64,000 bases of DNA from an uncultured Candidatus Saccharibacteria bacterium (GTDB taxonomy: Bacteria > Patescibacteriota > Minisyncoccia > Phycocordibacterales > Phycocordibacteraceae): NCBI GenBank assembly GCA_964650475.1, contig CAZYRK010000002.1:12087-76086 (forward strand), in the 5' to 3' direction. Below are positions 3,679-32,235 of the stretch, piece after piece. Both the position numbers and the translations under genes were made by a program. The stretch's first letter is position 1. Every line of letters begins with the position of its first letter. The notes below the pieces were generated by a model that did no database searches, was not told the DNA's origin, and saw nothing but the letters and a program-made list of their open reading frames with translations.

Positions 3679-4011
3679 TTATACGGACTTTTCTTCCGTA
3701 AGAGTAACCGCCATGCGACTTTTGCGATGACGAATAGTTGAAGCGCGACCAAATGCTCGTGCGCGGAAACGCTTAAGCATTCCGGAGCTATCGACCGTTA
3801 TGTTTGCAATACGCAGGTCTTCCGGTTTCGCACCCTTCTGTGTTGCGTTTGCAACAGCAGAGCGGATTAGTTTAGAAACAGGCTGTGCAGCGCGTTTGTT
3901 GAGGAAATCGAGCTCCGCAAGAGCGAGCGCGACTTTCTTGCCTTTTACAAGGTTCGTAACGAGGCGCACTTTACGCGGGGACTGATTATATCCTTTTAGT
4001 TCAGCTTTCAT
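3679..4011 (-). CDS. rplV: 50S ribosomal protein L22
   Basis: 110 aa, MKAELKGYNQSPRKVRLV is an L22 N-terminus. Confidence 0.9.
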   Translation of the reverse strand: MKAELKGYNQSPRKVRLVTNLVKGKKVALALAELDFLNKRAAQPVSKLIRSAVANATQKGAKPEDLRIANITVDSSGMLKRFRARAFGRASTIRHRKSRMAVTLTEEKSV

Positions 4012-12294: not shown

Positions 12295-12759
12295 CTATTT
12301 ATTCAATAACGGGCTGTAATACTCTTTAAGGGCTTTGTTTGAAATGATTTGACTCGATGTTTTGTTTGCTTCTTTCCATGGAGTATGAGCATGGGTAATA
12401 TTAACGAGCTTGCTTGCGGAATAACCACCGAAAGTGTTCCAGATTATTTGAACAACTTTTTTATCCTCTTCGGAAAGCGATGACTTGCCGTCATCAATAA
12501 TCGGATTACTGCCATTACTTCGATATTTTTTATAAACACGCGAAACAACCGGTCCGTACTCCCACGCTTCAATATCATCAGAAAAAAGTGCCCTACCTAA
12601 TTTTGCAATATAATATGCCTGCGCAAAATATAATATCTTTTGTAATTTAAGATTTGTGATTCCTTCGCGTTCCTGATTATCGCCGACAAGCTCTTTTGAA
12701 GCGAGATGGATGAAATATTTTGCAACATTGTCGGCTGTGTAAGTTATTTTTTTAGCCAT
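12295..12759 (-). CDS. Panacea-domain (DUF4065/SocA-like) antitoxin-family protein
   Basis: ..NLKLQKILYFAQAYYIAKLGRALFSDDIEAWEYGPVVSRVY.. matches the DUF4065 core. The likely start is the internal MAKKITYT (12759); the ORF extends to 12822. Confidence 0.65.
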   Translation of the reverse strand: MAKKITYTADNVAKYFIHLASKELVGDNQEREGITNLKLQKILYFAQAYYIAKLGRALFSDDIEAWEYGPVVSRVYKKYRSNGSNPIIDDGKSSLSEEDKKVVQIIWNTFGGYSASKLVNITHAHTPWKEANKTSSQIISNKALKEYYSPLLNK

Positions 12760-12858
12760 ATATAAACTATATCTTGCTGAGTAACAAAAGCCAACAAAAT
12801 CCCGGCAATCATCATTGTGCATAAGTAAAGCGCGCGTAGTTATATATTGTTCAGCACA

Positions 12859-13821: not shown

Positions 13822-14301
13822 CTACCAAGCAAAGTGCGCAAAAGCCTTGTTTGACTCCGCCATGCGGTGCATGTCGTCTTTCTTTTTAACTGCGTCTCCT
13901 TCACCTTTAGCCGCGAGCAGAAGCTCTTCTGCGAGTTTTTCAGACATTGGTCGTCCTTTTTTGTTGCGTGCTCCGTTTATTATCCAACGAAAAGCCAGTG
14001 CGAGTCTGCGCTGTTGCGGAACTTCGCGAGGAACCTGATAGTTTGCACCACCTACACGACGAGAACGAACCTCCATAAGAGGAGAAACATTGCGTATCGC
14101 CATTTCAAAAGTTTCAAGCGCGTCAATCTTTGTTCCCTCTTCGTTTTTAAAGTCGAGACTTCCAAGAGCATCGTACACAACCTTGCGTGCGATATCTTTC
14201 TTTCCGTCCAACATAACAGCGTTAATGAAACGGGTAAGCGTTTCAGAACCGTATTTAAGATCGGGGTTCCATGTGCGGGGATTTTTAATTGGGTGTCTCA
14301 T
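13822..14301 (-). CDS. rpsG: 30S ribosomal protein S7
   Basis: 159 aa, S7-like (..FINAVMLDGKK..ARKVVY.A..), follows rpsL. Confidence 0.9.
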   Translation of the reverse strand: MRHPIKNPRTWNPDLKYGSETLTRFINAVMLDGKKDIARKVVYDALGSLDFKNEEGTKIDALETFEMAIRNVSPLMEVRSRRVGGANYQVPREVPQQRRLALAFRWIINGARNKKGRPMSEKLAEELLLAAKGEGDAVKKKDDMHRMAESNKAFAHFAW

Positions 14302-16066: not shown

Positions 16067-18835
16067 ATGTACACCATAAAGATATTAAAATGTAAACCAA
16101 TGCGCGCACATAAGCCCCTACTCTTTTCACTCGCAGTTTTTATCTTTGCTGTTTTGGTAGGCGTGCCTCAAGTCTCTCGGGCAGATACAAATCCAAATAT
16201 TCCACAATGCCCAAGATTCGAAAAAACCGGGCTGCGCTGGACAAATCCAGACCCGCATCGAAACACTTTCAATCAGACTTTTCCTAAAATAGATATGACT
16301 GGGGATATTTTTATATCTAATTATCCTGGTATTTTTATGCAGGACGGTGGCACGTACTCTTTTCCTTTTCATATACCCAGTTTTGGTTATGTGGTTATTG
16401 CAGGTACAAACTGTTCCAAAACAAAAGGCGACCTGTACTTTCTTCCGAAAGATTCCAGCGCACGCCAATTCGTAACGAGCTTCCATGGAGCCGGAGATAT
16501 TTTTGGGGGTTCACCTTACAGCCCACCGGACATTACTTATTTCCAATGGAAAAAATCCGGGCAATACGAGCTTGATATCCAAGAAAAGAATTCTGACACC
16601 GGCACATATGCGCTTACAAAAACCATTCACTTTACAGCAATAAACACCGACAACCCTTGCTCTGCCCCCAATTCCTGTTTTGACAATGTTCTTTTTATCC
16701 CGGGCACCGAAGCGAGCAGACTGTACTACAAAGACGGTTTTGGTGAACACCAAGTATGGGAACCGGATTTTTATACCGATATACCGTACCTAGAAATGAA
16801 CCAAGACGGCACGAGCAAACACACGCTGTACACGAAAGACATTATCGGGAGTTTGTATGGGAACACTACGGTCGAGAAAAAGATTGCTCTGCAATACTTA
16901 AACCAGGACGGAGTACAGGTCTACGGAAACTTCGAAAAGTTTATGAACGGGCTCGTAGCTTCAAGCACAATTAAGCAATGGTCTGCTTACCCCTACGACT
17001 GGCGCTACAGCGCGGACGACATTGTAAACAACGGAACTCTCACAGAAATGCCAAACGGCACCTTAAAACGCGTTTATATTGAAAAAGAGATCGAAAACCT
17101 TGCGTCAAGCTCCCCGACGGGGAAAGTAATGATTGTGGCACATTCAAATGGTGGTTTGGTTGCAAAAGAGCTTTTACAGAAACTCTCCAACGACGGCAAG
17201 CTAAAGCTTGTTGACAAGTTCGTTATGGTTGCCACTCCGCAATGGGGTACACCGGAAGCTATCGGCGTACTATTGCATGGAGACGGACAGACTCAAGCGC
17301 ACGGGCTTCTTATGAGCAGTGCCGAGACCCGAAGAGTAACAAAAACAATGCCCGGAGCTTACGACCTTTTGCCATCCTGGGAATATTTTCAGCAAATTAC
17401 TATTCCGGTTATCACTATCGATGCAAACGGCTCCGCCACAAACGACCTTGCAAAAGCTTTCGGAACAAAAATATCTTATTTCACAGAATTCGCAAATTTT
17501 CTTGAACACGGGTTTGGATATTTCCCCGCCCCGCAAGACACGGACACAGCACTGCGCACACCTATAGCTCTTTCCAAAAAACTCATCGATAAAGCAAAAG
17601 ACATGCATTTTCTTATAGACGTAGCGACCAGATGGTCGGATCTTTACGGTATCGACGTAACAGCGATAGCAGGCTGGGGGCAAAACACAGTAAAAACACT
17701 GGCGTACTCTACCGGGCAAAAAACAATCTGCACAAACCTCACCGCCGATGTTATAAACGCTTTTGAACCTCCGTGCCATACCTACTATTATCTCGAACAC
17801 ACACCGGTAACAACCCAAGGTGGAGACGGCACCGTCGTTTATCAAAGTGCTGTTGGAAATATTATTCACGAGTTGTTTTTTGATTCTTTTCTTTTCAAGA
17901 AAATCTTCCACGAGAAAATAGTCCACCAAAACATAACCTCCGCACCGCCAATACAAAATGTAATTAAAGACATTCTTACAAACAAAAAAGTACAGAAAAC
18001 AAACTACATAACAAAAACAAAACCTTCTTCCGGTGAAACTTTCCACGAAATCCGTATAAGCTCTCATTCTCCGGTAAATATTCTTATAACTTCCGCAAAC
18101 GGGGAACAGAGCGGTGTTGTCCATATTCCCGGCACAGACTTCTCTGGAACAAAAATGGATATTCTAGGAAGCTCCGTGCAGGTTTTCGATACAGAAGAGT
18201 ATGTAAGCCTTCCAAAAAATGGAAACTATAAAGTGGTTGCGCGGGGTCACGGAAACGGCACAGCAACAATACTTATTGAAACGATAGCCCAAGACGGAAC
18301 TGCGAGCACTACAAATACGTTTGCGGAAATTCCGACCACGGCAAGCTCCACCATTACTTTCTCCGTATCAAAAGGACAGCCTACAGCACCTATAATAGAC
18401 CTCACAGGAACCGGCAAACACACTTTTACCATACCTGTTGGCAACGACCCGCTCGCATATGTTCTTTATATGAAAAACGCGATTAAAGAAATGAATCTCT
18501 CTCGCGGTGAGCACTTTGTTATCAATGCAAAGCTCTCCGTGATAGAAATGCAGATAAAAAGCTCCAAAGAAACATCGCGATTTTTCAGAAAGGTGTGGCG
18601 AGGACACAGACCATACGGCAAACTGAGCGCCTGGCGAAACAAACAGATTAAATTTGAGCTTGCTGTTCTTACTCGCTATATCAACCACCAGTTTTCTCTT
18701 TCTGCGCGTATCGATAAAAATAAAGACATGCGCTCGCATCGGCACTTCGCCCGATACAATATGCAACCACACATAAGTGCGACGCAAGCTGAAACCATTA
18801 TCGATATGATCAACCGCCTAAAAAACTTAATCTAA
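16067..18835 (+). CDS. Secreted alpha/beta-hydrolase (lipase/esterase-like, GHSxG-type nucleophile elbow) with large C-terminal region
   Basis: 922 aa with a signal peptide (MRAHKPLLFSLAVFIFAVLVGVPQVSRA) and IVAHSNGGLVAKELL nucleophile motif typical of PGAP1/lipase-class hydrolases. The last ~120 aa are unusually basic. Confidence 0.6.
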   Translation: MYTIKILKCKPMRAHKPLLFSLAVFIFAVLVGVPQVSRADTNPNIPQCPRFEKTGLRWTNPDPHRNTFNQTFPKIDMTGDIFISNYPGIFMQDGGTYSFPFHIPSFGYVVIAGTNCSKTKGDLYFLPKDSSARQFVTSFHGAGDIFGGSPYSPPDITYFQWKKSGQYELDIQEKNSDTGTYALTKTIHFTAINTDNPCSAPNSCFDNVLFIPGTEASRLYYKDGFGEHQVWEPDFYTDIPYLEMNQDGTSKHTLYTKDIIGSLYGNTTVEKKIALQYLNQDGVQVYGNFEKFMNGLVASSTIKQWSAYPYDWRYSADDIVNNGTLTEMPNGTLKRVYIEKEIENLASSSPTGKVMIVAHSNGGLVAKELLQKLSNDGKLKLVDKFVMVATPQWGTPEAIGVLLHGDGQTQAHGLLMSSAETRRVTKTMPGAYDLLPSWEYFQQITIPVITIDANGSATNDLAKAFGTKISYFTEFANFLEHGFGYFPAPQDTDTALRTPIALSKKLIDKAKDMHFLIDVATRWSDLYGIDVTAIAGWGQNTVKTLAYSTGQKTICTNLTADVINAFEPPCHTYYYLEHTPVTTQGGDGTVVYQSAVGNIIHELFFDSFLFKKIFHEKIVHQNITSAPPIQNVIKDILTNKKVQKTNYITKTKPSSGETFHEIRISSHSPVNILITSANGEQSGVVHIPGTDFSGTKMDILGSSVQVFDTEEYVSLPKNGNYKVVARGHGNGTATILIETIAQDGTASTTNTFAEIPTTASSTITFSVSKGQPTAPIIDLTGTGKHTFTIPVGNDPLAYVLYMKNAIKEMNLSRGEHFVINAKLSVIEMQIKSSKETSRFFRKVWRGHRPYGKLSAWRNKQIKFELAVLTRYINHQFSLSARIDKNKDMRSHRHFARYNMQPHISATQAETIIDMINRLKNLI

Positions 18836-19301
18836 CTTTATGAAACTCTGGTATAAAAAATCTAGCCTTTTCATACTCGCCGGCATTTCGTATCTTGTCG
18901 GGCAGTATTTTAGAGGAGAATGGTGGCCTTTTTTCACATGGCCATTCAAATGCAATATGATAACTTCAGGAACCGCCATGTACTGCGACCCTAAATATAT
19001 GGACACTCTCGGCTTTCCTCTCATCGTCCTCGGACAGACGCTCGCTATCGTTGCGCTCATACTTTTGCTTGCAAACGAAAGTGCTTTTCGCAAATGGCTT
19101 CACTTTAGTTATTGGTATGTGCCTGTTGCAACAATACTCTCGTTTATGATGTATCCCGCCCATACCCCTCTTGGCGGAGAGGTTTCTATTTCGCAAGGTG
19201 TTTATTTGTTTGGGAGACCGTATGTTCTCATCACCGCCGGGATTGTAATTCTATATATTCTAAAATTCCTAAAGAGACAACTTCGGGAAAGGAGACTCCG
19301 A
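18791..19301. repeat. 511-bp direct repeat, copy 1
   Basis: Identical ORFs on both strands and identical boundary sequence imply that 18791-19301 equals 19990-20500. It includes the last 45 nt of the hydrolase gene. Confidence 0.75.
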
Positions 19302-19316
19302 GTGAAGCGAGACTAG
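18840..19316 (+). CDS. Hypothetical polytopic membrane protein (copy 1)
   Basis: 158 aa, ~4 predicted TM helices. The first 153 aa are identical to ORF 20039-20536. Confidence 0.5.
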   Translation: MKLWYKKSSLFILAGISYLVGQYFRGEWWPFFTWPFKCNMITSGTAMYCDPKYMDTLGFPLIVLGQTLAIVALILLLANESAFRKWLHFSYWYVPVATILSFMMYPAHTPLGGEVSISQGVYLFGRPYVLITAGIVILYILKFLKRQLRERRLRVKRD

Positions 19317-19989: not shown

Positions 19990-20500
19990 GAAACCATTAT
20001 CGATATGATCAACCGCCTAAAAAACTTAATCTAACTTTATGAAACTCTGGTATAAAAAATCTAGCCTTTTCATACTCGCCGGCATTTCGTATCTTGTCGG
20101 GCAGTATTTTAGAGGAGAATGGTGGCCTTTTTTCACATGGCCATTCAAATGCAATATGATAACTTCAGGAACCGCCATGTACTGCGACCCTAAATATATG
20201 GACACTCTCGGCTTTCCTCTCATCGTCCTCGGACAGACGCTCGCTATCGTTGCGCTCATACTTTTGCTTGCAAACGAAAGTGCTTTTCGCAAATGGCTTC
20301 ACTTTAGTTATTGGTATGTGCCTGTTGCAACAATACTCTCGTTTATGATGTATCCCGCCCATACCCCTCTTGGCGGAGAGGTTTCTATTTCGCAAGGTGT
20401 TTATTTGTTTGGGAGACCGTATGTTCTCATCACCGCCGGGATTGTAATTCTATATATTCTAAAATTCCTAAAGAGACAACTTCGGGAAAGGAGACTCCGA
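19990..20500. repeat. 511-bp direct repeat, copy 2
   Basis: See copy 1. It starts with a duplicated fragment of the hydrolase 3' end (..ETIIDMINRLKNLI*). Confidence 0.75.
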
Positions 20501-20536
20501 AAAATAAAAGCACGCGAATCTACAGACACACACTAA
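20039..20536 (+). CDS. Hypothetical polytopic membrane protein (copy 2, different C-terminus)
   Basis: 165 aa. It diverges from copy 1 only after residue 153, where the repeat ends. Confidence 0.5.
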   Translation: MKLWYKKSSLFILAGISYLVGQYFRGEWWPFFTWPFKCNMITSGTAMYCDPKYMDTLGFPLIVLGQTLAIVALILLLANESAFRKWLHFSYWYVPVATILSFMMYPAHTPLGGEVSISQGVYLFGRPYVLITAGIVILYILKFLKRQLRERRLRKIKARESTDTH

Positions 20537-20699
20537 ACCAGCCAACGACTTTGTCGTTGGCTGTATTTTTTTATATATGTACTTTGCTAGTTTGCTTTTA
20601 TAAGCTGCGCAGTAAAACCGGCGCGCCGGTTTTACTCTTCACCGCCCCACTTTCCTACCTTCTCTTTAAGCTCCCTCTTATAGAAAAAACTATTCAGTG

Positions 20700-21413
20700 T
20701 CAGAAGAACGCTTCCGTACAGATTTTTTCTTCATCCACACCGATAGACTTAAGCCCTCTCCACATATCTCGCACAAACGATATCGAACCACATATGAAAA
20801 ACTCCGCTTCGGTTTTTCTATTAAGTTTATTTAAAACCGTTTCCGCAGACATTCTGCCATAAGTCATTTCAGTTGGGATATTTTCTTCTTGTGTGATGAA
20901 ATAATCCACTTTTATAAACAGGTGCTCAAGAGCCAGCTTGTCGAGTGTCTTATGAAAGACAATATCAGAAACTGTTTTGTTGCTGTAAAAAAGATGCATT
21001 TCCCTTTCCTGTTTTTTACCCACAGAATCGAGCATTACGCTCCGAAAAGGAGCTACGCCGATACCGCCCGCAAGCATTACAAGCATACTGGCTTTGGACT
21101 CGCTATAAAAATACCCGCTTGGAGCTGACGCTAAAAAAGTATCTCCCGGAGCAAGAGCGCACAGCCGGCGCGAAAAGTCTCCACGTGCACTTACCGTTAT
21201 GCTTATCGGCTCTGTCGGGGCACTTGAAATACTGTATGCCTTGCCTTCTGGTGTGCCGAGCTCCGGAAGATACACTGTTATAAATTGCCCGGGTACATAC
21301 TCTGCAGGCTCTCCTTCGCACGAAAGACGCAAGGTCGTAACACTTGGTGTCTCAATTTCAGTGCTTGTCACCGTATATATTTTTTTATTTGTTTTTTGCA
21401 TCATTTTTTTCAT
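20700..21413 (-). CDS. FAD/NAD(P)-binding oxidoreductase (ferredoxin-NADP reductase-like)
   Basis: 237 aa, FAD-binding ..KAYSISS.. and NAD-binding MLAGGIGVAPF motifs. Confidence 0.7.
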   Translation of the reverse strand: MKKMMQKTNKKIYTVTSTEIETPSVTTLRLSCEGEPAEYVPGQFITVYLPELGTPEGKAYSISSAPTEPISITVSARGDFSRRLCALAPGDTFLASAPSGYFYSESKASMLVMLAGGIGVAPFRSVMLDSVGKKQEREMHLFYSNKTVSDIVFHKTLDKLALEHLFIKVDYFITQEENIPTEMTYGRMSAETVLNKLNRKTEAEFFICGSISFVRDMWRGLKSIGVDEEKICTEAFF

Positions 21414-21825
21414 AGTCTTTTATTGCATCTTTAAGTGCCAAATGCCCCAGAACCGAACAATGGTATTTACGATCCGGAAGCCCCTCAAGTCTTTCGATAA
21501 TCGCCTCGGGCTGTATCTTTTTGGCGCGGGCAATAAGCATTCCACCATTTTCAGTCACCATCAAAGACAACATCGAGGTAGAAGCTATCGCTGACGCGCA
21601 ACCGAAAGTACGCCACTTGCACTCTGTTATTTTTTGATTTCCCTTATCAACTCGTATCCATATCGCCATCATGTCGCCACACGCAGGGCTTCCCACGACA
21701 CCGACACCGTCTGCCACATAGTTTTTTTCATCAAGCAATATGTTCCGCGGATTAAAGAAATGATCTTTCACCACTTCACTGTAAAGCCACCCTTCTACAT
21801 CGCATTTTTTTATTTCTGTTTTCAT
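21385..21825 (-). CDS. nifU: Fe-S cluster scaffold NifU/IscU-like
   Basis: ..GSPACGDMM...WRTFGCASAIASTS.. conserved Cys ligands of IscU/NifU N-domain. Confidence 0.85.
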   Translation of the reverse strand: MKTEIKKCDVEGWLYSEVVKDHFFNPRNILLDEKNYVADGVGVVGSPACGDMMAIWIRVDKGNQKITECKWRTFGCASAIASTSMLSLMVTENGGMLIARAKKIQPEAIIERLEGLPDRKYHCSVLGHLALKDAIKDYEKNDAKNK

Positions 21826-23021
21826 AAACATATCTCTAGCGCTGACAACGACCTTAATTTTTTAATAATTTCAGGCAAAACACCGAGTACGTATTTCAAT
21901 TCTTTTAGAGTTGTATACCTTCCTAACGAAAAGCGAATACTTCCGTGCGCAAGCTCCGCACTTTGCCCGATAGCCAAAAGCACATGCGAAGGTCGCAAGT
22001 CTCGCGCAGAGCACGCGGAACCGGTCGCAACCTCTACGCCCATGCTGTCCAGCATAAGCAGTATCGATTCCCCTTCTATATTTGGAAAAGAAAAATGCAC
22101 ATTGCCCGGAAGGCGTTTGGTAGGGTGTCCGTTAAGAATTGCCTCCGGAATTTCTTTCTTCACACGAGCGATAAAGTAGTCGCGGAGCTTGGCGAGGCGC
22201 GCCGGCTCTTTATCTCGCATCAAATCTGCAATGCGAAGAGCTTCGGCACACCCCACGATAAAAGGTACGCTCTGTGTGCCGGCGCGCACCCCGCCCTCTT
22301 GCCCACCACCAACAATGACGGGCTCTATTCGCACCCCGTTTCTTTTATATAAAAAGCCAATGCCTTTAGGTCCATACATTTTAGAACCATTGAGAGTCAT
22401 CAGGTCGACACCCGTTTCTAAAACGCTAAGCGACAAAAAACCCGGAGCCTGACAAGCATCGGTATGCAAAAGTGGAAATTGTTTTCCTCCACGAAAAGTT
22501 TGGATAAGTTTGGAGATTTCACGAATCGGCTCGACCGTCCCTATTTCATTATTTGCATACATTACAGAAACCAACACAGTGTCGTCACGCAACATCTCAG
22601 AAAGACGCTTCGTATCGATTATCCCGTTTGAAAGCACTGGTGCCACACTTACCTCAAATCCCTCGCGCTCCAAAAGATGCGCGCTCTCAAACACTGCTTT
22701 GTGTTCTATGGAAGAAATTATGATGTGTCGCCCGTTTGCTTTATTTGCTCGCGCAACGCCAAGCAGTGCAAGGTTGTCCGACTCAGTGCCGGAACCGGTA
22801 AAAATAATCTCCTCTGCGGAGCACTCGAGTACCTTCGCCACAACAGACTTTGCTTCTTTAATAGCGTGCATAGCCCTACGTCCGCTTGCATAAAGTGAAG
22901 ACGGATTACCATAACGCTTATCAAAATACAGCATCATCGCTTTAAGCACTCGCGGATCAAGCGGTGTTGTTGCGGAGTAGTCTAGATATACAGAGCTATC
23001 GGATTGCGCAGTAATCGACAT
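21822..23021 (-). CDS. nifS: Cysteine desulfurase (NifS/IscS, class V aminotransferase)
   Basis: 399 aa, ..IYLDYSATTPLD.. N-terminus, PLP-lysine region, catalytic loop ..GSACSA... Confidence 0.9.
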   Translation of the reverse strand: MSITAQSDSSVYLDYSATTPLDPRVLKAMMLYFDKRYGNPSSLYASGRRAMHAIKEAKSVVAKVLECSAEEIIFTGSGTESDNLALLGVARANKANGRHIIISSIEHKAVFESAHLLEREGFEVSVAPVLSNGIIDTKRLSEMLRDDTVLVSVMYANNEIGTVEPIREISKLIQTFRGGKQFPLLHTDACQAPGFLSLSVLETGVDLMTLNGSKMYGPKGIGFLYKRNGVRIEPVIVGGGQEGGVRAGTQSVPFIVGCAEALRIADLMRDKEPARLAKLRDYFIARVKKEIPEAILNGHPTKRLPGNVHFSFPNIEGESILLMLDSMGVEVATGSACSARDLRPSHVLLAIGQSAELAHGSIRFSLGRYTTLKELKYVLGVLPEIIKKLRSLSALEICL

Positions 23022-23682
23022 ATTTATTTAGCATTACCTTAAACTCCTCCATTTCCGCATCACTATAGCTAACCTTGTGCTTGAGCTGAGGGTTTAATAT
23101 TTTGGTCGAAACAAACTTCTGCAAAAAATACCGTTTTGCACCTTTTATTTCTTTCCCAATCTGCAAAATATCCTCTTTTGCAAGAATTCCTTTAACAAAG
23201 GTCGTGCGAAACTCATATTTTATCGACGAACCCATCAGAAGCTCCACACTCTTTCGTACCGCTTCAATATTTACAGGCATAGAAACAGTCTGAGGATACA
23301 ATGCGAAAGGTGATTTTATATCCATTGCGATATAGTCGACAACTCCTTTTTCTATCAAGTCGCGAAGCATTTCAGGACGCGTGCCGTTAGAATCCAGCTT
23401 AACAAGGAAGCCTCTATCTTTAATCTTTTTAATAACCTCTGGCAAACCGTCGTGCATTGTCGGCTCGCCTCCGGTGATAACAACACCGTCTAACATTCCT
23501 TTTCGCGTATCCAAAAACTCAAAAAAGCTGTCCTCGGAAATACGAGTTTCAACAGTCTCGTTTACCAGCTCCGGATTATGGCAATACGGGCAATGGAAAT
23601 TACAACCTATAGTGTAGACAACGCACGCAACCTTTCCGGGATAGTCTACAAGCGTAAATTTTTCCAATCCTCCAAACTCCAT
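22996..23682 (-). CDS. nrdG: Anaerobic ribonucleotide reductase activating protein (radical SAM)
   Basis: 228 aa, CNFHCPYC radical-SAM motif, directly downstream of nrdD. Confidence 0.85.
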   Translation of the reverse strand: MEFGGLEKFTLVDYPGKVACVVYTIGCNFHCPYCHNPELVNETVETRISEDSFFEFLDTRKGMLDGVVITGGEPTMHDGLPEVIKKIKDRGFLVKLDSNGTRPEMLRDLIEKGVVDYIAMDIKSPFALYPQTVSMPVNIEAVRKSVELLMGSSIKYEFRTTFVKGILAKEDILQIGKEIKGAKRYFLQKFVSTKILNPQLKHKVSYSDAEMEEFKVMLNKYVDYCAIR

Positions 23683-23686
23683 TTTA

Positions 23687-25855
23687 TTATTTTGTATTTA
23701 CAGCCTCCTCTGCAGAAACCTCAACATGCACAGAAAGAGGGTCGTATGTCTCGCGAGCTTCATACTCTGCTTGCTTCCCTATGTTCCACTGGCTAACCGG
23801 ACGCAAATACCCAACCACACGCGAATATACTTCGCATTCATTTTTGCAAGTCGGACACAGGTGGTGTTCTCCGGCGATATACCCATGAACAGAACACACG
23901 CTAAAGGTGGGGGTTATCGTAAAATATGGCAGTTTATAATTTTCGCAAATCTTTTTTACCAACGCGGGTACAGCTCCGGCATCTGCAATCCTCTCTCCTA
24001 AAAACAAGTGCATCACAGTACCTCCTGTATATTTTGTCTGAAGACCGTCTTGAATATCCATCGCTTCTATAATGTCGTTTGTGTATTGCACCGGAAGATG
24101 AGATGAGTTGGTGTAAAAAGGTGATGCTCCTTTTGCATACTCGCTCTCGTTCGCAACAATAATATCCGGAAACTGTTTTTTATCTTTTTCGGCTATTCGA
24201 TACGAAGTACCCTCTGCCGGAGTAGCCTCTAGGTTGTACAGGTTGCCTGTGTCTTTTTGATATCCGACAAGACGCTCTCTCATATAATCTAAGACTTTCG
24301 TAGCAAACGCATGCCCTTTTTCCGTACCGATATCTTCTCCCAAAAGATTAACCAGCGCTTCATTCATACCCAGCAAACCTATAGTTGAGAAATGGTTTTC
24401 CCAGTACGCACCGTACGATTCTTTTATTTTTCTTAAATAAAACTTTGTGTATGGATACAAATTTGCATCTGTAAGTTTCTCCAGTATTTTACGTTTAATC
24501 TCCAGACTCTCTTTCGCGATATCCATTTGGACAGACAGCAACGAAAAGAACACCTCTTCTGCCTTTTTCATATCACCATGGCTTTTTTGCTTTGCCAGAT
24601 ACCCCAAACGAGGCATGTTTATCGTTACCACGCCCACCGATCCGGTAAGAGCATTTGCACCAAAAAGCCCTCCCCCGCGTCTGTCGAGTGCTTCGAGGTC
24701 GAGTCTTAGCCTGCAACACATCGACCGCGTGTCTTCCGGCTTCATATCTGAATTTACAAAATTGCTAAAGTAAGGCACGCCGTACTTTGCGGTAATCTCC
24801 CACAAGCCACGCAGGTTTGGATTTTCCCAGTCAAAGTCGCTTGTAACATTTACAGTAGGGATTGGAAATGTAAACACGCGTCCGGAAGCGTCTCCCTCGC
24901 TCATCACTTCAAAAAACGCAGAGTTTAACATGTCCATTTCTTTCTGAAATTCGCCGTATGTTTCATCTTGCTCTTCCCCGCCGATGATAACTTTCTGATC
25001 CTTAAAATTCGGTGAGGGTGTGAGGTCGAGCGTAATGTTAGAGAACGGCGTCTGAAAACCAACACGAGTCGGCACATTCATATTGAAAATAAATTCCTGC
25101 ACAGACTGCTTTACCTCTTTTTGAGAAAGGTTGTCGTAGCGAACAAACGGAGCTAGCAATGTGTCGAAATTTGAAAAGGCGATAGCTCCGGCTGCTTCAC
25201 CCTGCAAGGTATACATAAAATTTACCATCTGCCCAAGCGCTACACGCAGATGCTTCGCCGGTGCCGACTCGATTTTACCGGAGACACCGCGAAAACCTTC
25301 TGTGAGCAGGTCCTGCAGATCCCAACCAACGCAATAGACTGCGAGAGTGCCGAGGTCGTGAATGTGAAGACTGCCTTTCTCGTGCGCATCTCTTATTTTT
25401 TTCGGATAGATTTTATTAAGCCAATACGTTTTACTTACTTCTGAAAAAATATGGTTATTCATTCCCTGAAGCGAATAACCCATATTGCTGTTTTCTTTTA
25501 CCTGCCAGTCTAGCTCGCTGAGATAGTTGTCGACCAACCCAAGCGAGACGGAAGTGGCGAAAGCTCGCATTTCTGCATGTTGTTCACGGTAAATTATGTA
25601 AGCCTTTGCCGTAGCGGGAAAATTATTAAGTATGAGCTGGTTTTCTACAATATCCTGCACATCTTCAATAGAAGGAATCTCTTTGGAAAAGTTTTTACTA
25701 ATATCTGAAACGATATTGTTTGTCATTGCAAAAAGAACACTATCTGAGATATTTTCACCTGAAGCTGAAAAAGCCTTTTTAAGCGCACTTGTAATTTTTT
25801 CTGCATCAAAAATAACAACGCTTCCGTTTCTTTTTTTAATTTCAAGTATGGGCAT
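23687..25855 (-). CDS. nrdD: Anaerobic ribonucleoside-triphosphate reductase (class III)
   Basis: 722 aa, N-terminal ATP-cone, C-terminal glycyl-radical motif SRVVGYLRP and CPTC zinc site. Confidence 0.92.
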   Translation of the reverse strand: MPILEIKKRNGSVVIFDAEKITSALKKAFSASGENISDSVLFAMTNNIVSDISKNFSKEIPSIEDVQDIVENQLILNNFPATAKAYIIYREQHAEMRAFATSVSLGLVDNYLSELDWQVKENSNMGYSLQGMNNHIFSEVSKTYWLNKIYPKKIRDAHEKGSLHIHDLGTLAVYCVGWDLQDLLTEGFRGVSGKIESAPAKHLRVALGQMVNFMYTLQGEAAGAIAFSNFDTLLAPFVRYDNLSQKEVKQSVQEFIFNMNVPTRVGFQTPFSNITLDLTPSPNFKDQKVIIGGEEQDETYGEFQKEMDMLNSAFFEVMSEGDASGRVFTFPIPTVNVTSDFDWENPNLRGLWEITAKYGVPYFSNFVNSDMKPEDTRSMCCRLRLDLEALDRRGGGLFGANALTGSVGVVTINMPRLGYLAKQKSHGDMKKAEEVFFSLLSVQMDIAKESLEIKRKILEKLTDANLYPYTKFYLRKIKESYGAYWENHFSTIGLLGMNEALVNLLGEDIGTEKGHAFATKVLDYMRERLVGYQKDTGNLYNLEATPAEGTSYRIAEKDKKQFPDIIVANESEYAKGASPFYTNSSHLPVQYTNDIIEAMDIQDGLQTKYTGGTVMHLFLGERIADAGAVPALVKKICENYKLPYFTITPTFSVCSVHGYIAGEHHLCPTCKNECEVYSRVVGYLRPVSQWNIGKQAEYEARETYDPLSVHVEVSAEEAVNTK

Positions 25856-25875
25856 AATAAATATCGTGATATTAA

Positions 25876-25918
25876 TAAAAAACAGCCGGCGCTCCGCGCC
25901 GGCTGTTTTTTATTTTTT
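25876..25918 (-). terminator. Intrinsic terminator between the riboswitch-like element and the nrdD start (putative expression platform)
   Basis: CAGCCGGCGC-TCC-GCGCCGGCTG stem, followed on the minus strand by TTTTTT, 20 nt upstream of the nrdD ATG. Confidence 0.55.
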
Positions 25919-25939
25919 CTGTAATATAAAAATTCAAAC

Positions 25940-26110
25940 AAAATACCTTACGCGGGCATAAGCATTAGACTTTACGTCTATGTTTTGGATGGTCTGACTT
26001 CTCATACGAGTTACAGTTGCGCGACAGTACCGGACTTGCACCGGTTTCACTCCAAAACTACTTTTAGGCTGTAAACGAACTGCCCTCATCATACCTCATG
26101 CCGGCACATA
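25940..26110 (-). ncRNA. Candidate cobalamin (B12) riboswitch aptamer upstream of nrdDG
   Basis: Minus strand reads ..GGAGTGAAACCGGTGCAAGTCCGGTACTGTCGCGCAACTGTAAC...GAGAAGTCAGACCATCC.., resembling the cobalamin-riboswitch core (GGUG.AA.UCC...CCCGC.ACUGUAA) and B12-box-like AGUCAGACC. It lies in the 5' leader of nrdD. Not verified by a covariance model. Confidence 0.5.
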
Positions 26111-26150
26111 TTGCTCGTGGATAATGCAGATATTTATTTATACCAACGCG

Positions 26151-26184
26151 AAAAACCGGCGCGCCTTCGGCGCGCCGGTTTTTC
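26151..26184 (-). terminator. Hairpin terminator after the cohesin-like gene
   Basis: AAAAACCGGCGCGCC-TTC-GGCGCGCCGGTTTTT. Confidence 0.55.
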
Positions 26185-26228
26185 TCTTCACTGCCCTACT
26201 TTCCTACCTTTTTCTTAAAAGCTCCCGC

Positions 26229-26998: not shown

Positions 26999-27628
26999 TT
27001 ATGTTTGCCAATTAACGATAAGAATATTGAAGTCGAGGATACCGACAACATCGTTGCCATTTAGATCGGCATCAATATTGCTTCCTTTCTGACCCCAGTG
27101 AACCAAAAGAGCATTGAAGTCGAGAATATCTACCTTTCCATCGTGATTTATATCACCGGCGGGGTAGGTTGTACTGACTGGTGTGTAGCTTCCGCCTCCG
27201 CCACCGCCTCCGCCTGAAGAAGGTGCTGGTGAATCGTTCTCGTTAATAACATACGTGAACGAAGCAAGCGGTGAGGTTTTCGATCCGTAACACGCGACAG
27301 CTCGCAATAATGCGGAACCTGTAACCTGAACAGGTTCTGCTGTGTCATAAACCATACCATTATTACAGGAAAGTTCAAGGTCTCTCGTGTTAATCATGTA
27401 GTGAATAGACGAGGCACCGGAAGCCGACAAAGCAACGCTCTGCGCTTCATCGTATGTACCACCTGTCGGTGTGGCTGTTGGTTTTGCCATAACAAACCCT
27501 GTTACTCCTGTGCTCACATTACCTGCGTTTGACCCTTCGCCAGGGGCAATCGTCTGCCAACCTGTCGTAGAAGCAAATGCTGGTGTCGCAAGAGCTAAAG
27601 AAAATATAACTGCAAAGATGTATTTCAT
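26999..27628 (-). CDS. Secreted protein with C-terminal dockerin-type module (two Ca-binding repeats)
   Basis: 209 aa with a signal peptide, poly-Gly linker, then GDINHDGKVDILDFNALLVHW and DLNGNDVVGILDFNILIVNW, which are tandem dockerin-like EF-hand repeats. Confidence 0.6.
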   Translation of the reverse strand: MKYIFAVIFSLALATPAFASTTGWQTIAPGEGSNAGNVSTGVTGFVMAKPTATPTGGTYDEAQSVALSASGASSIHYMINTRDLELSCNNGMVYDTAEPVQVTGSALLRAVACYGSKTSPLASFTYVINENDSPAPSSGGGGGGGGSYTPVSTTYPAGDINHDGKVDILDFNALLVHWGQKGSNIDADLNGNDVVGILDFNILIVNWQT

Positions 27629-27648
27629 AATGATATTTTCTAATCAGT

Positions 27649-30600
27649 TTATAATGTAGGGGCTTCTGACTTAAATGCGTACGACGATGAGTACGACAAT
27701 CCTTCAGCACTATCTGTCGGTACTTTCATCTCTACAACAACCTGCACTTGCCTTCCCGGAACAGTAGGATACATATCTGCATTTGCGTTTAATGTAATCG
27801 GTCCTGCAAACGTATTTGCTGAATCAATCATCATTGCGGTGCTTGCACTGTTTGCATCCGATGATTGCGGACTATAGAAACGAATGTTTCCATCTGCAGG
27901 AATTATATTTACGCCATCACTCGTTTTGAAATCTTTAAACTTCATTGATAGATCCGTTTCGTTCGTCGGTACCGTTACGTCAAACACCCAGCTCCATCCG
28001 TTTTCAAACGTACTGCCGACTGTCGCCATGGTGCTACTTGCGGTAACTCTAGTAACACCGAGCGAAGCAATATCATTAAACACGATATACATAACCGGAA
28101 CATTCACAGTATCTCCTGTTGATGAAGTTACTATCACATTGTAGGCATGGTAACCAAGCGCAGATGCATCTGTTGGTGTCGCTACCGTTAGCGTTGTTCC
28201 GTCTGTGTCAACGCTTGTTGCTACACCGTTTACAGTAGTGCTCTCTACACCGGTAGTTTCAAACTGCAAACCATTTACAAAGCGAGCAGACGCCTGTGTA
28301 GAGGTGTACGCCGTAAGTAGCGGGTCTCCATTTAGGATAAGTGTCGGGATTATAGGGGTAATTGTATTTGCATTTACGTTGTACGCTACTGTAATATTTG
28401 TGAAGTTACCTGTTGGTGAAGTTACAACAACATTATACACATGAAGCCCAAGAGTGGTTGCGCCTGCAATAGTTGTTGTGGCGGCATTGGCGTCTCCAAC
28501 CAAAGTTGCACTTATTCCGTTGACAGTAACACTCGCTGCACCAGTCAATGTGAATTGCAATCCGTCAGTAAAGCGAGCTCCTGCTTCCGTTGCTGTATAT
28601 GGAGAAGCAATTGCATCTCCATACAGTGCGATAGTTGGTGTTATAGGAGTAACAGTATTTGCATTTACTTGATACCCAACTGTTTTGGTTACGGTATTTC
28701 CTGTTGAGGAAGTAACTTTTACTGTGTACAAGTGCAATCCGAGAGTTACGGCACCCGTAGATGTCACTGCGGTTAGTGCTCCATTTCCACTTGTCGGTAC
28801 AGTTACGCTCGTTCCGTTAACAGTAGCGCTTATGGCGTTTGTGACATCAAACTGCAATCCGTTAGTAAACCTGCTTGTCGCCTGATCAACCGTGTATGGT
28901 GATGCGATTGCATCGCCATCAAGTATAAGGGTCGGTTGTACGACGGGGGTTGCGGTGAATTCAATTGTATTGGCTCCAGTAGCTGTTCCACCCACTTCTG
29001 TGGCAGTCACATTGACCCACCCGGCAATAGTATTGGTTATCGTAGTGGCTGTGCTACCGAGCGCTCCCATAGTGAGAAGATTTAAACCAAATGAAGCCCC
29101 GTTGTCTCCGATAAGTGTGAGCTTGGTTGAACTATCATTTACTACTGTGTAGTCACTCGCGTCTTTTGCCGTAACAGTAAGAGTTGAATCATGATTTACC
29201 TCTTGTGGATTCGTGCCAAAGCTCAGGTCAAACGAAGCGATCGGGTCGATTGAAACTAATGTACAAGTAAATGTGTTTGTTCCATTACCATCATTAACAG
29301 GAACATCCGTACAGAATGGGCTGAAATCTATGTTATCTGATGCAGATGATCCGATTCCTGATGGGTTAAGAGCGTCATTTTCAGGTCCTGTTTTATCACC
29401 CCACCAGTTTTTCTCTGCGTTGAATGAGCTATTGCTCCACGCGCCATTAAGAACGTTACCTGCTATATTATTTTCGCTCGCCGTGATAGAAGGCTCTGTA
29501 GTATTCCCTGTTGTGTAATCTCTTACTAAGATACCGTAATCGTTTGAGTTAATTGTGTTGTTGTTAATAGAACCTGTTGTTCCAAATTCGTTATAGCCAA
29601 AATAACTAAACCATTGGTCTGCACTCCATACGGCAATTCCTGTTGGATATGCGTTTCCTGTATGAGCAAGACCTGTAATATCATTGTTGTGAATATTTAC
29701 AGCATTAGATCCTACAGACCAAACGCCAAACTGGTTATTGGTAAGAGTGTTACCTGATACTTCAACAGTGCCAGAAGTGTGATACAAAAGGATTCCCGCT
29801 GCTCCATCTGCCGTTGTATCTGTTGTTGGATTATTATCAGTAGAATATGTGTAAATACCAGTCCAAACATTGTCTTTAACTGTATTGTTTTTGACCTTCC
29901 CAGTGGCGCCAAAACCAATTTGAATACCGTTTTGAGCGATTGAAGTAGTTGGACCCATGCCTGTTACTGTGTTGTCGTGGATATTTGCTGTCATGTCGGG
30001 ATAATTCGCAGTAATACCATTTTTTAGATAGTCAGAAACAACGTTGTCTTTAACTTCCAATGAAACCGATGTGGCATCATGCCCAACCAAATACATTCCT
30101 CCGCCATTATGGATATTGATACCGCTAATATCCATATTAGCAATTACACCACTAGTGTCTCGATAAAAGATGCCAACGAGTTCCGCACTAGAAGGTGTCG
30201 ATGTAATAAGAGAGCCATCTATTTTGAATCCGTGAATGTTAACAGTTTCTCCGTTTGTATTTACTCCGATAATAGGAGCTGTGTCTTTATTACTGCTATC
30301 AGTTCCTCTCGCAAAAAGTTGAAATGCACTAGCTGTTGCTTGAGATGGTTTAATAATAGTTGTGTTCCCTGCACCTTGAAGCGTTAAGGATTTGTTAATT
30401 ACAACTTGTTCGTCATAAGTTCCAGCGGCGACATCAATCGTTGTAATTCCATCAACAGAAGCATCGATTGCCCCTTGAATTGTTGCAAAATCTGGTGTTC
30501 CTGTTTTTGCCACGGTCAAGATTCCGTCAATATCGTATACAAACGATACTGACCTTGAAACTGTGTTCCCTGCCTCATCTGTGACAGTAAGGTTAATAAT

Positions 30601-32235
30601 ATGTCGTCCATCAGTAAGGTTTGAAATTGTATTACTCACTTCCCCACCCGATGTACAACTAACAAGTACCGAGCTTCCGCTATCTATCGTGTAAGAACAT
30701 GTGAGCAGGCTTGCATCAGTCGGAGTAAATATAAGTGTTGGGTTCGAATTGTGGTAGACAACATTCTCACCTGGCGAGAGAAAATCGGGGATCGTCGGAT
30801 TCGTGGTATCAATAACAAAAGTGTGTGTGCCATTAGATACCATTACGTTACCCGCAGCATCTGCTCCGTCAGTCAAAGTTATCGTAGCTGTACCATCTGA
30901 GCTGGGTTGGGTAATTGTGTAATCATAAGTCCATGTATCAGTTGGGGCTGTACCTAACATAGGTGTTGCTGAAACAGTATCAATGGTTCCAGCCGTATCA
31001 ATCGCGATTTGCGGTGCTGTTGTTAATGGCTCGCTGAATTTTACAGTGATTGTATGTGTTCCGGCATTGAAGTATTGTCCATCACTACTTACAGCATCGG
31101 TTGCAGTTGAGACCGTCGGCTTCGTTTTATCAAAAGTAACAGTACTACTATCAGTTGTATTCGTTACTTGTATACCTGAATTACCAGCCACGTCACTAAA
31201 ATCAATCGCGAAAGGAACTACCCTCTCGGAGTCACTTGATTGCATCGTATAAGTAGCTGCCCAAGAAGCTCCCGAACCAGTTACTAACGCTGAATTTCCA
31301 CCAATAGTTACTGTCAGGGTTTGAATATCCTCATCGGCAGTGATGTTCACTGTAATCTTGTCACCAACCTTAGCAAAACTTGAATTAGAATTTTCCGAAG
31401 TTATACCTACAGTACTTAATGTAGGTGCTGTTTGATCAACATAAATAGTACCATCGCTTGGAGTACCTGTTGTAGAATTGCCGGCATTGTCTGTAATGAC
31501 TGCTCCAAGTGTAATATTTTTACCGTCAGCAAAACCAGTCAATGCTTCAAAGGTTGATGCTTGGATACTTATCGTGGTTGTGTTTCCAGTACTATTGTCA
31601 ATATTTACCGATGAACCCAAGTCCACAAAACTACCGCTGCCAATCTGTGCCTGAAGTTGAATATTCCCACCTATTAGTGAGCTGTCACTGGAGTCTACAG
31701 GAACGACAACCTTCAATGCCGTGTTAGTAGAGTTCCATTTACCAGAAACAACATTTCCACCTGACGCAGTAACACCTCCAACCGTAAAGCTAGCTGGTGC
31801 TGTGGTGTCAATAACAAATTTATGTGAACTATCAGATGCCATCACATTGCCAGCAACATCTGTTCCATCAGTCAGAGTTATCGTAGCTGTACCATCTGAG
31901 CTGGGTTGGGTAATTGTGTAATCATAAGTCCATGTATCAGTTGGGGCTGTACCTAACATAGGTGTTGCTGAAACAGTATCAATGGTTCCAGCCGTATCAA
32001 TCGCGATTTGCGGTGCTGTTGTTAATGGCTCGCTGAATTTTACAGTGATTGTATGTGTTCCGGCATTGAAGTATTGTCCATCACTACTTACAGCATCGGT
32101 TGCAGTTGAGACCGTTGGGATTTGTGTATCTACTTTTACTTCTTTTGAACTTCCGACAACTTCAACATTTCCTGCATTGTCTGTTGATTTCCATACTATG
32201 AAGTTAGTACCGTCAGGAACCGCAAACGGATCCAA
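27649..32235 (-). CDS. Giant surface protein (beta-helix/PbH1 repeats, Big-like repeats), C-terminal 1528 codons
   Basis: Parallel beta-helix repeat stretch (..NNTIIKP..NIHNNDITG..), duplicated ~100-aa module, and three ~95-aa C-terminal repeats. The same frame continues upstream through a TAG into ORF 32362-32826. Confidence 0.7.
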   Translation of the reverse strand: MDPFAVPDGTNFIVWKSTDNAGNVEVVGSSKEVKVDTQIPTVSTATDAVSSDGQYFNAGTHTITVKFSEPLTTAPQIAIDTAGTIDTVSATPMLGTAPTDTWTYDYTITQPSSDGTATITLTDGTDVAGNVMASDSSHKFVIDTTAPASFTVGGVTASGGNVVSGKWNSTNTALKVVVPVDSSDSSLIGGNIQLQAQIGSGSFVDLGSSVNIDNSTGNTTTISIQASTFEALTGFADGKNITLGAVITDNAGNSTTGTPSDGTIYVDQTAPTLSTVGITSENSNSSFAKVGDKITVNITADEDIQTLTVTIGGNSALVTGSGASWAATYTMQSSDSERVVPFAIDFSDVAGNSGIQVTNTTDSSTVTFDKTKPTVSTATDAVSSDGQYFNAGTHTITVKFSEPLTTAPQIAIDTAGTIDTVSATPMLGTAPTDTWTYDYTITQPSSDGTATITLTDGADAAGNVMVSNGTHTFVIDTTNPTIPDFLSPGENVVYHNSNPTLIFTPTDASLLTCSYTIDSGSSVLVSCTSGGEVSNTISNLTDGRHIINLTVTDEAGNTVSRSVSFVYDIDGILTVAKTGTPDFATIQGAIDASVDGITTIDVAAGTYDEQVVINKSLTLQGAGNTTIIKPSQATASAFQLFARGTDSSNKDTAPIIGVNTNGETVNIHGFKIDGSLITSTPSSAELVGIFYRDTSGVIANMDISGINIHNGGGMYLVGHDATSVSLEVKDNVVSDYLKNGITANYPDMTANIHDNTVTGMGPTTSIAQNGIQIGFGATGKVKNNTVKDNVWTGIYTYSTDNNPTTDTTADGAAGILLYHTSGTVEVSGNTLTNNQFGVWSVGSNAVNIHNNDITGLAHTGNAYPTGIAVWSADQWFSYFGYNEFGTTGSINNNTINSNDYGILVRDYTTGNTTEPSITASENNIAGNVLNGAWSNSSFNAEKNWWGDKTGPENDALNPSGIGSSASDNIDFSPFCTDVPVNDGNGTNTFTCTLVSIDPIASFDLSFGTNPQEVNHDSTLTVTAKDASDYTVVNDSSTKLTLIGDNGASFGLNLLTMGALGSTATTITNTIAGWVNVTATEVGGTATGANTIEFTATPVVQPTLILDGDAIASPYTVDQATSRFTNGLQFDVTNAISATVNGTSVTVPTSGNGALTAVTSTGAVTLGLHLYTVKVTSSTGNTVTKTVGYQVNANTVTPITPTIALYGDAIASPYTATEAGARFTDGLQFTLTGAASVTVNGISATLVGDANAATTTIAGATTLGLHVYNVVVTSPTGNFTNITVAYNVNANTITPIIPTLILNGDPLLTAYTSTQASARFVNGLQFETTGVESTTVNGVATSVDTDGTTLTVATPTDASALGYHAYNVIVTSSTGDTVNVPVMYIVFNDIASLGVTRVTASSTMATVGSTFENGWSWVFDVTVPTNETDLSMKFKDFKTSDGVNIIPADGNIRFYSPQSSDANSASTAMMIDSANTFAGPITLNANADMYPTVPGRQVQVVVEMKVPTDSAEGLSYSSSYAFKSEAPTL

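Follow-up and report, generated by a model that had tools for sequence, protein, structure and literature searches.

A probable cobalamin-clan riboswitch with a terminator platform upstream of nrdDG in a Patescibacteria genome

The nrdD leader and the operon it precedes

The DNA analysed here is a stretch of 64,000 nucleotides, referred to as the window, from contig CAZYRK010000002.1 of an uncultured Candidatus Saccharibacteria bacterium. On its minus strand it carries nrdDG, the genes of a class III anaerobic ribonucleotide reductase (RNR) and its activase, and the structured 5' leader of nrdD is the focus of this study. The initial annotation of this leader proposed a cobalamin (B12) type aptamer with a terminator expression platform, and this proposal is supported by a match to the Rfam model RF01482, by a second covariance model termed R1 and by covariation within the window's own clade. 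We consider it likely, on the basis of sequence comparison, that the element belongs to the cobalamin riboswitch clan and serves as an OFF switch, terminating transcription ahead of a five-gene operon. The Patescibacteria, or candidate phyla radiation (CPR), combine a minimal metabolism with few known regulators, and yet a metabolite-sensing RNA would here be placed on an essential operon of deoxyribonucleoside triphosphate (dNTP) supply.

The element lies directly upstream of nrdDG, a documented target of B12 elements (PMC545781). The five genes from nrdD to that of a ferredoxin-NADP reductase (FNR)-like oxidoreductase (20700-25855) overlap or lie 4 nt apart, no strong internal terminator was found on the minus strand of this region, and the gene order is identical in the related loci L201, L202 and L206; the five genes are probably one operon. 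The tight arrangement of nrdD and nrdG with the genes of a cysteine desulfurase, a NifU/IscU-like scaffold and the FNR-like oxidoreductase is kept in relatives. This suggests that the RNR shares its regulation with the iron-sulfur (Fe-S) supply and with a reductant system serving the NrdG activase, and the riboswitch would govern Fe-S assembly genes besides nrdDG.

The motifs GGTGCAAGTCCGG (26042-26030), GTCGCGCAACTGTAAC (26025-26010) and AGTCAGACCATCC (25999-25987) of the leader, the terminator and the nrdD start were all found on the minus strand where the initial annotation had placed them. The terminator has a perfect, GC-rich stem of 10 bp with the loop GGA, CAGCCGGCGC/GCGCCGGCTG (25905-25896/25892-25883), and is directly followed by T6 (U6 in the RNA) at 25882-25877. 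It stands close to the nrdD ATG (25855-25853), as had been described, at a counted distance of 21 nt from T6 instead of the 20 nt given before. Pairing of a 5' A-run with a 3' U-run lengthens the hairpin to 19 bp, and from this extension the terminator looks bidirectional. Its folding energy is -20.4 kcal/mol for the core stem and -29.9 kcal/mol with the extension.

A probable cobalamin-clan aptamer in the leader

RF01482, the model of an adenosylcobalamin (AdoCbl) aptamer in clan CL00101, matches 25940-26075 on the minus strand with a full-length alignment (1-149) at 40.2 bits; the E-value of 4.9e-6, from a permissive scan, refers to a search of 461 nt and scales to ~7e-4 for the whole window. 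Measured against the curated gathering score of 50, this match is significant yet below the cut-off. The model RF00174, on which the initial annotation had relied, returned nothing at its gathering score, and the sub-threshold match came from its sister model RF01482; the score of RF00174 itself was masked by clan competition in the permissive scan. Sub-threshold scoring is common for this architecture with a short P6, because only 14 of 19 short-P6 or nrdD-linked elements pass a cobalamin-clan gathering score and five fail, and the Rfam cut-off is an operational one. Among the elements which do pass the RF01482 threshold are L177, L092 and L111, sister elements with the short-P6 architecture of the window.

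All motifs of the four-way junction P3-P6 with its conserved core are present, namely the T-loop hairpin GGUGnnAnUCC, the P5 hairpin and P6 with its CNG/CNG pairing (helix names follow PMC7367189). The B12 box with J6/3 (rAGYCMG...CC) is represented by AAGUCAGACC at 26000-25991, which is aligned to the RF01482 consensus AAGUCAGGUC. The window and the RF01482 aptamer share the continuous closing helix, GGUGnnAAnUCC, the P5 loop, ACUGU...AAGUCAG and the short P6 hairpin. They differ in P13, the model's 3' hairpin, for which the alignment in the window is poor, and in that the model has neither the 30-nt 5' linker nor the long-range outer helix described below.

With regard to class, the large P6 extension of Cbl-I (P7-P11, GCCACUG...GGGAAGGC) is missing from the window, in which 13 nt lie between AACUGU and AGUCAG, compared with 70-80 nt between these positions in Cbl-I elements from the metagenome scan described below. 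The Cbl-II class has a small P6 extension and no P2 module, and its J1/3 is bulged (IIa) or paired/mismatched (IIb) (PMC7367189). The window shows a short P6 hairpin, variable in its clade, and an 8-bp continuous closing helix of the IIb-like kind, whereas the 30-nt linker and the outer helix 5' of the closing helix bring its layout nearer to the yvrC hybrid riboswitch of Bacillus subtilis than to a plain Cbl-II. Because P6 carries only a 3-bp mini-hairpin, the element is most likely Cbl-II-like (IIb-like) with hybrid peripheral features. Like the window, yvrC has a short P6 hairpin, an extra element between P1 and P3 and a linker hairpin between aptamer and platform, and it regulates transcription (PMC7367189). 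In a comparison made by description only, its P2 module is a well-defined loop-stem-loop which buttresses the binding pocket, whereas the equivalent in the window is at best a stem of 3-4 bp.

A metagenome scan with a shared 30-nt core pattern yielded 120 loci, which span the whole clan. The P6 extension measures 70-80 nt in class I and 2-3 nt in class II, and the window, with 13 nt, falls into a group between the two that has a simple hairpin of 12-25 nt. In every scanned element the variable base of AACNGU is paired with that of AGYCNG, and across the 120 this pair covaries as T-A, G-C and C-G. R1 was built from 47 short-P6 sister elements, with the window left out and the expected core structure imposed. 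In its training alignment 83% of the cells are paired, compared with 67% in shuffled and 25-50% in slid controls (pair 50-82 was enforced by the selection filter and is not counted as evidence); the P6 hairpin columns covary across the 47 elements, and the P4 stem does so both there and within the clade. R1 matches the window at 25978-26064 (-) with 69.8 bits and an E-value of ~1e-25, a score which is partly circular, as the training set was picked with an 18-base pattern from the window and its relatives; the match also covers features outside this pattern, that is, the paired flanks, GAA in J3/4, the P6 hairpin and the B12 box. Elsewhere in the 64 kb R1 gave a single match of 10 bits, at 13975-14046 (+) inside the S7 gene, which was dismissed as noise.

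The genes downstream of the sister elements encode BtuB-like receptors, a BtuF-like binding protein, ECF-S/DUF6580 and DUF4430 proteins, class-I NrdA-like proteins and NrdD, which is a standard B12 regulon. As a separate observation, the short-P6 elements L092 and L110 precede genes for small proteins, with a Pfam match to the 4HBT thioesterase domain in L092 and homology by sequence only in L110; the 4HBT thioesterase is not a classic member of the B12 regulon.

Conservation of the folded leader within the clade

A protein search found NrdD at 84% identity in L201 and in L202/L203, together with the strain-level variants L206/L207 and L208, and all of these loci share the five-gene operon and a homologous leader. 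R1 scores 47 bits in L202 and 31 bits in L201, and Rfam did not detect either element at E<1e-3. The full structure model, which comprises the closing helix, P4, P5, a 3-bp L5:CGCG contact, P6, the post-aptamer hairpin, P13 and the terminator, is 96.7% paired on the alignment of the three lineages. Eight pairs change on both sides, compared with 3.3+-1.4 in shuffled alignments (0/500) and 0-1 in slid ones, and every helix except the base of P6 has at least one compensatory change. The strain variants show structure-compatible differences only. This covariation within the clade is the strongest evidence that the whole leader is a selected RNA structure.

The individual helices illustrate this pattern (Table 1). 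The initial annotation presumed a P1 helix around the core, and a core-closing helix (P3, which is continuous with P1 in Cbl-IIb terms) does form, with 8 bp which are 100% paired in the clade and include two compensatory pairs. P4/L4 carries GGUGCAAGUCC. P5 has a change from U-A to C-G in L201, and in L202 a C to U change in L5 is matched by G to A in a downstream CGCG motif. The P6 mini-hairpin is longer in L202 and missing in L201, and because of this variable length it is regarded as peripheral. An analogue of the post-aptamer hairpin occurs at the same position in the Cbl-IIa-type nrdD leaders of other CPR bacteria. An alternative P1 from UUUAC (26075-26071) and GUAAA (25975-25971) was rejected, as L201 has no GUAAA.

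RNAalifold, applied to six clade leaders, returned the closing helix, P4, the post-aptamer hairpin and the terminator, and it also pairs 26115-26089 with 25961-25937 in a long-range outer helix, which probably encloses the whole aptamer. The helix is 94% paired, compared with 32-52% in slid alignments, and four of its pairs change on both sides, compared with 0-1; this support draws on only three independent lineages and on the very alignment that had yielded the helix. Its 5' strand takes in TATGAT (26093-26088), alternatively a possible -10 box; with TATGAT as part of the helix, the RNA would probably start upstream of 26115. TATGAT had at first been taken as a -10 box, in line with the TGnTATTAT of relatives, until RNAalifold and the pair counts favoured an RNA helix. 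Within the linker of ~30 nt there is a weak candidate for a P2-module-like stem-loop, two pairs of which are predicted by RNAalifold, with a change from C-G to U-A in L202 and L201.

A conserved block, GCATTATCCAC, followed by a partial palindrome (CGCACTATTGTGCG in L202), lies at 26100-26127 (-) in the window, at ~1415-1440 in L202 and at ~3745-3775 in L201. Located within the 5' strand of the outer helix or upstream of it, the block could be a DNA operator of the NrdR-box-like kind, a promoter element or simply that strand of the RNA helix; for an NrdR box at 26127-26100, inspection by eye gave partial matches only.

In all classes of cobalamin riboswitches, a kissing loop between L5 and L13 ties the aptamer to the expression platform (PMC7367189). 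L5 of the window (UCGCGC) is complementary to CGCG at 25954-25951, and this pairing has one compensatory change, C-G to U-A, in L202. In the clade the CGCG motif has no convincing hairpin loop of its own, as the local P13 (CUUA/UAAG) has 3-4 bp and is broken in four of six sequences by an A.C at the fourth pair, for which it was downgraded. The L5-complementary CGCG may instead sit beside or within the modelled outer helix.

The expression platform and the proposed switch

The switch segment downstream of the aptamer combines the 3' strand of the outer helix and the CGCG motif with a candidate antiterminator strand, CCGCGU..GGU (25955-25945). This strand pairs with GCC.GCGCGG of the terminator 5' arm and loop, with a duplex energy of -14.6 to -15.8 kcal/mol that lies beyond the 5% tail of shuffles, and the antiterminator is the minimum free energy (MFE) structure of the window's leader (-17.4 kcal/mol) before the terminator 3' arm is transcribed. 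In silico, terminator and antiterminator are mutually exclusive. In L201 an analogous antiterminator is formed by CGUGC x GCACG, where a C to U change of the segment has its counterpart in a G to A change of the terminator arm. The CGCG core reads CGCA in L202 and CGUG in L201, and the motif GCnCGCG is kept in the window and in all seven of the CPR class-II nrdD leaders. A second antiterminator candidate, GUGCCGGC at 26107-26100 (-18.6 kcal/mol), is strong in the window and L206 and is not kept in L201 and L202.

In the switch which we infer, including its ligand binding, its direction and the identity of its antiterminator, the corrinoid-bound aptamer would hold 25955-25945 in the outer helix, as its 3' strand, and/or by the L5:CGCG contact, in a manner resembling L5-L13. 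With the segment sequestered, the 10-bp GC terminator would form 21 nt before the ATG and the operon would be off. In the ligand-free state, the antiterminator would form first and RNA polymerase would read through.

Table 1. Features of the nrdD leader and the downstream operon in the window (helices as predicted).
Feature	Position	Strand	Basis or remarks
Outer (P1-like) helix, 5' strand (probable)	26089-26115	-	segments 26115-26112, 26109-26106, 26098-26097, 26095-26089; RNAalifold
Possible P2-module-like stem-loop	26069-26082	-	C26082-G26069, G26080-C26071, U26079-A26072, A.A mismatch
Core-closing helix, 5' strand GUUUUGGA	26051-26058	-	MFE fold
J3/4 (GUGAAA) and hairpin P4/L4, CCGG-UGCAAGU-CCGG	26030-26050	-	conserved GGUGnnAnUCC; fits RF01482 consensus and R1
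P5/L5, UGU-CGC-GCA	26018-26026	-	Rfam alignment; loop proposed to touch downstream CGCG
P6 (CUG/CAG), 3-bp mini-hairpin CUC-GUAU-GAG and B12 box/J6/3	25990-26016	-	covariation
Core-closing helix, 3' strand UCCAAAAC	25982-25989	-	MFE fold, RNAalifold
Post-aptamer hairpin, UAGAC-GUAAA-GUCUA	25966-25980	-	MFE fold, RNAalifold; U-A to G-C in relatives
Switch segment (outer helix 3' strand, CGCG, candidate antiterminator strand)	25937-25961	-	outer helix 3' strand 25961-25955, 25954-25953, 25946-25943, 25940-25937; CGCG 25954-25951
Intrinsic terminator	25874-25914	-	stem kept in clade, one G-C to A-U change
nrdD (class III anaerobic RNR, 722 aa)	23687-25855	-	Pfam NRDD E 3e-198, ATP-cone E 1e-20
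nrdG (radical-SAM activase, NrdG-like)	22996-23682	-	Pfam
Class-V aminotransferase/cysteine desulfurase	21822-23021	-	Pfam
NifU/IscU-like	21385-21831	-	Pfam
FAD/NAD(P) oxidoreductase, FNR-like	20700-21413	-	Pfam

Related leaders in other lineages and known systems

The nearest relatives of NrdD all come from metagenome-assembled genomes of Patescibacteria/CPR. In a survey of 80 species-representative nrdD loci, a simple motif search by regular expression nearly missed the related elements, three of which were recovered by nhmmer and blastn. In L044, L049, L053, L066 and L069, five distant CPR lineages, an element that can be aligned stands ~170 nt ahead of nrdD, and the metagenome scan contributed two further nrdD-linked copies, L085 and L148. 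L053 scores 51.9 bits with RF01482, above the threshold of 50. With RF01689, for which the threshold is 36.5, L069 (45.6), L066 (40.3), L148 (45.9) and L085 (40.4) are all above, and L044 and L049, both at 36.2, fall 0.3 bits short. The initial annotation had named absence from the nrdD leaders of relatives as a point that would count against it, and the element is present in L201 and L202 as well as in these seven CPR lineages.

The seven leaders, among them those of a Berkelbacteria (L053), a Gottesmanbacteria (L049) and a Parcubacteria (L066) lineage, are of the Cbl-IIa type (RF01689, AdoCbl-II). Like the window, they precede nrdD and have a core with UCGCG in L5, an outer helix which encloses the core, a post-aptamer hairpin, a GCnCGCG motif doubling as antiterminator strand, and a terminator with a U-run shortly before the ATG. 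The outer helix of the window corresponds topologically to their P1 (AGCGG/CCGCU), in that both enclose the core and the post-aptamer hairpin, with CGCG following P1 in the Cbl-IIa-type leaders. Unlike the window, these leaders have a P6 which ends in a loop of 2-3 nt, a short P1, J1/3 (UUU) and P3, and they place CGCG in the clear loop of a P13 hairpin (GGCU-CGCGCCA-AGCC). In all seven, an antiterminator is formed by CGCGCCAAG x CUUGGCGC, where the L13 segment CGCG(C/U)CAAG pairs with the terminator 5' arm CUUGGCGC. Ligand-dependent capture of L13 by L5 would be the obvious way to let these leaders terminate. In these leaders the antiterminator (-10 to -19 kcal/mol) dominates over a weak terminator (-7.6 to -10.3 kcal/mol), whereas in the window it is the terminator which dominates.

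B12 elements on nrdDG in genomes which also have the B12-dependent NrdJ are an established paradigm (Rodionov et al., 2004, PMC545781). There, a B12 element on nrdDG of Desulfovibrio vulgaris and Desulfuromonas was likewise proposed to let B12 repress the B12-independent class III RNR (PMC545781). The genomes of these bacteria encode NrdJ and B12 synthesis or uptake, compared with the 64 kb of its genome read here for the window; further differences are the reduced-genome, Patescibacteria-type host and the Fe-S assembly genes in the operon. The mechanism, a B12 riboswitch repressing a B12-independent RNR, is therefore known, and it is the kind of host that is unexpected. The searchable literature held nothing relevant on native cobalamin riboswitches in CPR bacteria, nor on nrdJ or B12 in this group. 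From a riboswitch on nrdDG one would expect that the organism takes up corrinoids and that its genome encodes a B12-dependent RNR outside the window. Furthermore, because the window variant scores below the curated Rfam thresholds, standard annotation would miss it, and the 84% relatives even more so, and these sequences could help to widen the Rfam models.

A further proposal, which we regard as rather unlikely, is that the clade represents a Patescibacteria-specific sub-architecture missed by Rfam, with a long-range P1, a linker of ~30 nt and the CGCG beside or within the P1 helix and not in a P13 loop, which would couple corrinoid status to an operon for anaerobic RNR and Fe-S assembly. If true, these ultra-small symbionts would take up corrinoids from their host and alternate between B12-dependent and B12-independent dNTP synthesis. 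As an alternative, the altered core positions of L201 and L202 might reflect a change of ligand.

Alternative explanations

Several observations weigh against a functional cobalamin-clan OFF switch. At curated thresholds, an Rfam scan of the whole window returned one tRNA only, and none of the cobalamin-clan models RF00174, RF01482 and RF01689 passed its gathering score either there or in 25930-26110. The partial circularity of R1 belongs here as well, and the folding energy of the aptamer is unremarkable (z = -1.5). The L202 element (1473-1565) has UCC to UCA, UCGCG to UUGCG and AGUCAG to AGUUAG at normally invariant positions, and its platform is weak; in the L201 element (3795-3882) P5 is rebuilt and the mini-hairpin is missing. 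This would mean either that the core can vary more widely than the models allow for or that drift is at work in these copies. Of the NrdD loci from representative genomes, the 35 closest (66-78% identity) all lack the element, and its distribution is therefore patchy. At -20.4 kcal/mol, the terminator of the window far outweighs every antiterminator candidate, and read-through would need kinetic control. No promoter was identified: a scan found no sigma-70-like site, and there is no recognisable -35. Finally, no gene for NrdJ, a B12 transporter (Btu), a B12-binding protein or any other B12-related function was found within the 64 kb.

Much of this would also fit a relic or degenerating aptamer, that is, a cobalamin-derived fold with no response to B12 which serves as a constitutive attenuator or structured 5' untranslated region (UTR), its terminator being overcome in some other way. 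The match below the Rfam thresholds, the mutated 'invariant' positions in close relatives that are invisible to Rfam, the thermodynamically dominant terminator, the lack of B12 genes within the window and the patchy distribution among nrdD relatives are all in keeping with decay. The window, however, retains every core motif (GGUGnnAnUCC, the P5 loop, CUG/CAG and AGUCAG), and the compensatory changes in all helices but one and in the L5:CGCG contact argue for ongoing selection on the fold, as do strain variants which differ only in structure-compatible ways. We consider a relic improbable.

It is also improbable, to a similar degree, that the same fold and switch respond to another corrinoid (hydroxo- or methyl-cobalamin, or another cobamide or precursor obtained from the host) rather than to AdoCbl. 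The periphery linked to selectivity is atypical in the window, with its mini P6 hairpin, continuous closing helix and long 5' linker, and the CPR relatives are placed in RF01689 rather than RF01482. Moreover, selectivity varies among the riboswitch classes, and hybrids between them can show promiscuous binding (PMC7367189). Nothing in the sequence, on the other hand, separates the candidate ligands. AdoCbl is the cofactor of class II RNR, and sensing of AdoCbl would thus be the logical off-signal for nrdDG.

The 5' part of the region, 26127-26088, might instead act at the level of DNA, as a promoter with TATGAT as its -10 box and an operator, possibly of the NrdR type, and exert the main control of nrdD; this we judge to be very improbable. 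NrdR operators are common upstream of nrd operons, the -10 motif, TATGAT/TATGAT/TATAAT, is conserved and lines up with TGnTATTAT, the -10 box of CPR relatives, and the block GCATTATCCAC is conserved, with the partial palindrome CGCACTATTGTGCG in L202. The same bases, however, pair with 25961-25937 with four compensatory changes, a recognisable -35 is missing, the scan found no sigma-70-like site, and besides NrdD no NrdR-like (ATP-cone) protein was seen in the window. DNA-level control of this kind would, moreover, be compatible with a riboswitch.

A chance resemblance, in which an unrelated structured leader, a small open reading frame (ORF) or a mere terminator mimics the aptamer, could draw on the sub-threshold Rfam score and on an ORF of 52 aa (25934-26092) overlapping the region, but is effectively refuted, on sequence grounds, by the E-values of 4.9e-6 (Rfam) and ~1e-25 (R1), by homologues upstream of nrdD in several lineages, by the covariation within the clade and by indels of 1 nt and 6 nt in relatives which break the frame, for which a leader peptide was rejected as well.

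Further features of the window

The operon and its leader are flanked by an element of ~65 nt in two direct copies, at 26150-26224 (-) and 20612-20680 (-). Its core of 43 nt, with 93% identity, reads AAGGTAGGAAAGTrGGGCrGTGAAGAG.AAAACCGGCGCGCCG and ends in a GC-rich terminator hairpin. The repeat is present in strains of the same species (L206, and the contig ends of L204 and L205) whereas L201 and L202, the 84% relatives, lack it; a repeated 3'-UTR/terminator module and the trace of a cassette-like mobility are both conceivable. Between the 3' end of the operon and a convergent, duplicated ORF lies a perfect 11-bp bidirectional terminator hairpin, CAGCCAACGAC...GTCGTTGGCTG (20539-20563). The duplication is an exact direct repeat of 511 nt, 18791-19301 and 19990-20500 (+), with its copies 1199 nt apart, and it holds two 100%-identical ORFs (18840-19316 and 20039-20536) for a membrane-like protein with no Pfam family; it is either a recent duplication or an assembly artefact.

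The window is bacterial chromosome, with genes for ribosomal proteins, EF-G/Tu, NusA, ComEC, RecJ, type IV pilus components, ThyX and RNase Y. A protein with a SocA/Panacea antitoxin domain (E 3e-24) is encoded at 12295-12822 (-), between the EF-G gene and the S7/S12 genes, an unusual spot for a gene of the toxin-antitoxin type. Outside the window, L149, a contig which also has a sub-threshold cobalamin element, carries a group I intron match at 1144-1454 (-), beside tRNA genes (52.2 bits, gathering score 50). Just upstream of the gene neighbouring the leader, two apparent surface proteins are encoded at 26999-32235 (-), one of 1528 aa with beta-helix and Big domains and one of 209 aa with weak dockerin and CHB_HEX_C matches, which is typical cell-surface equipment of CPR bacteria.

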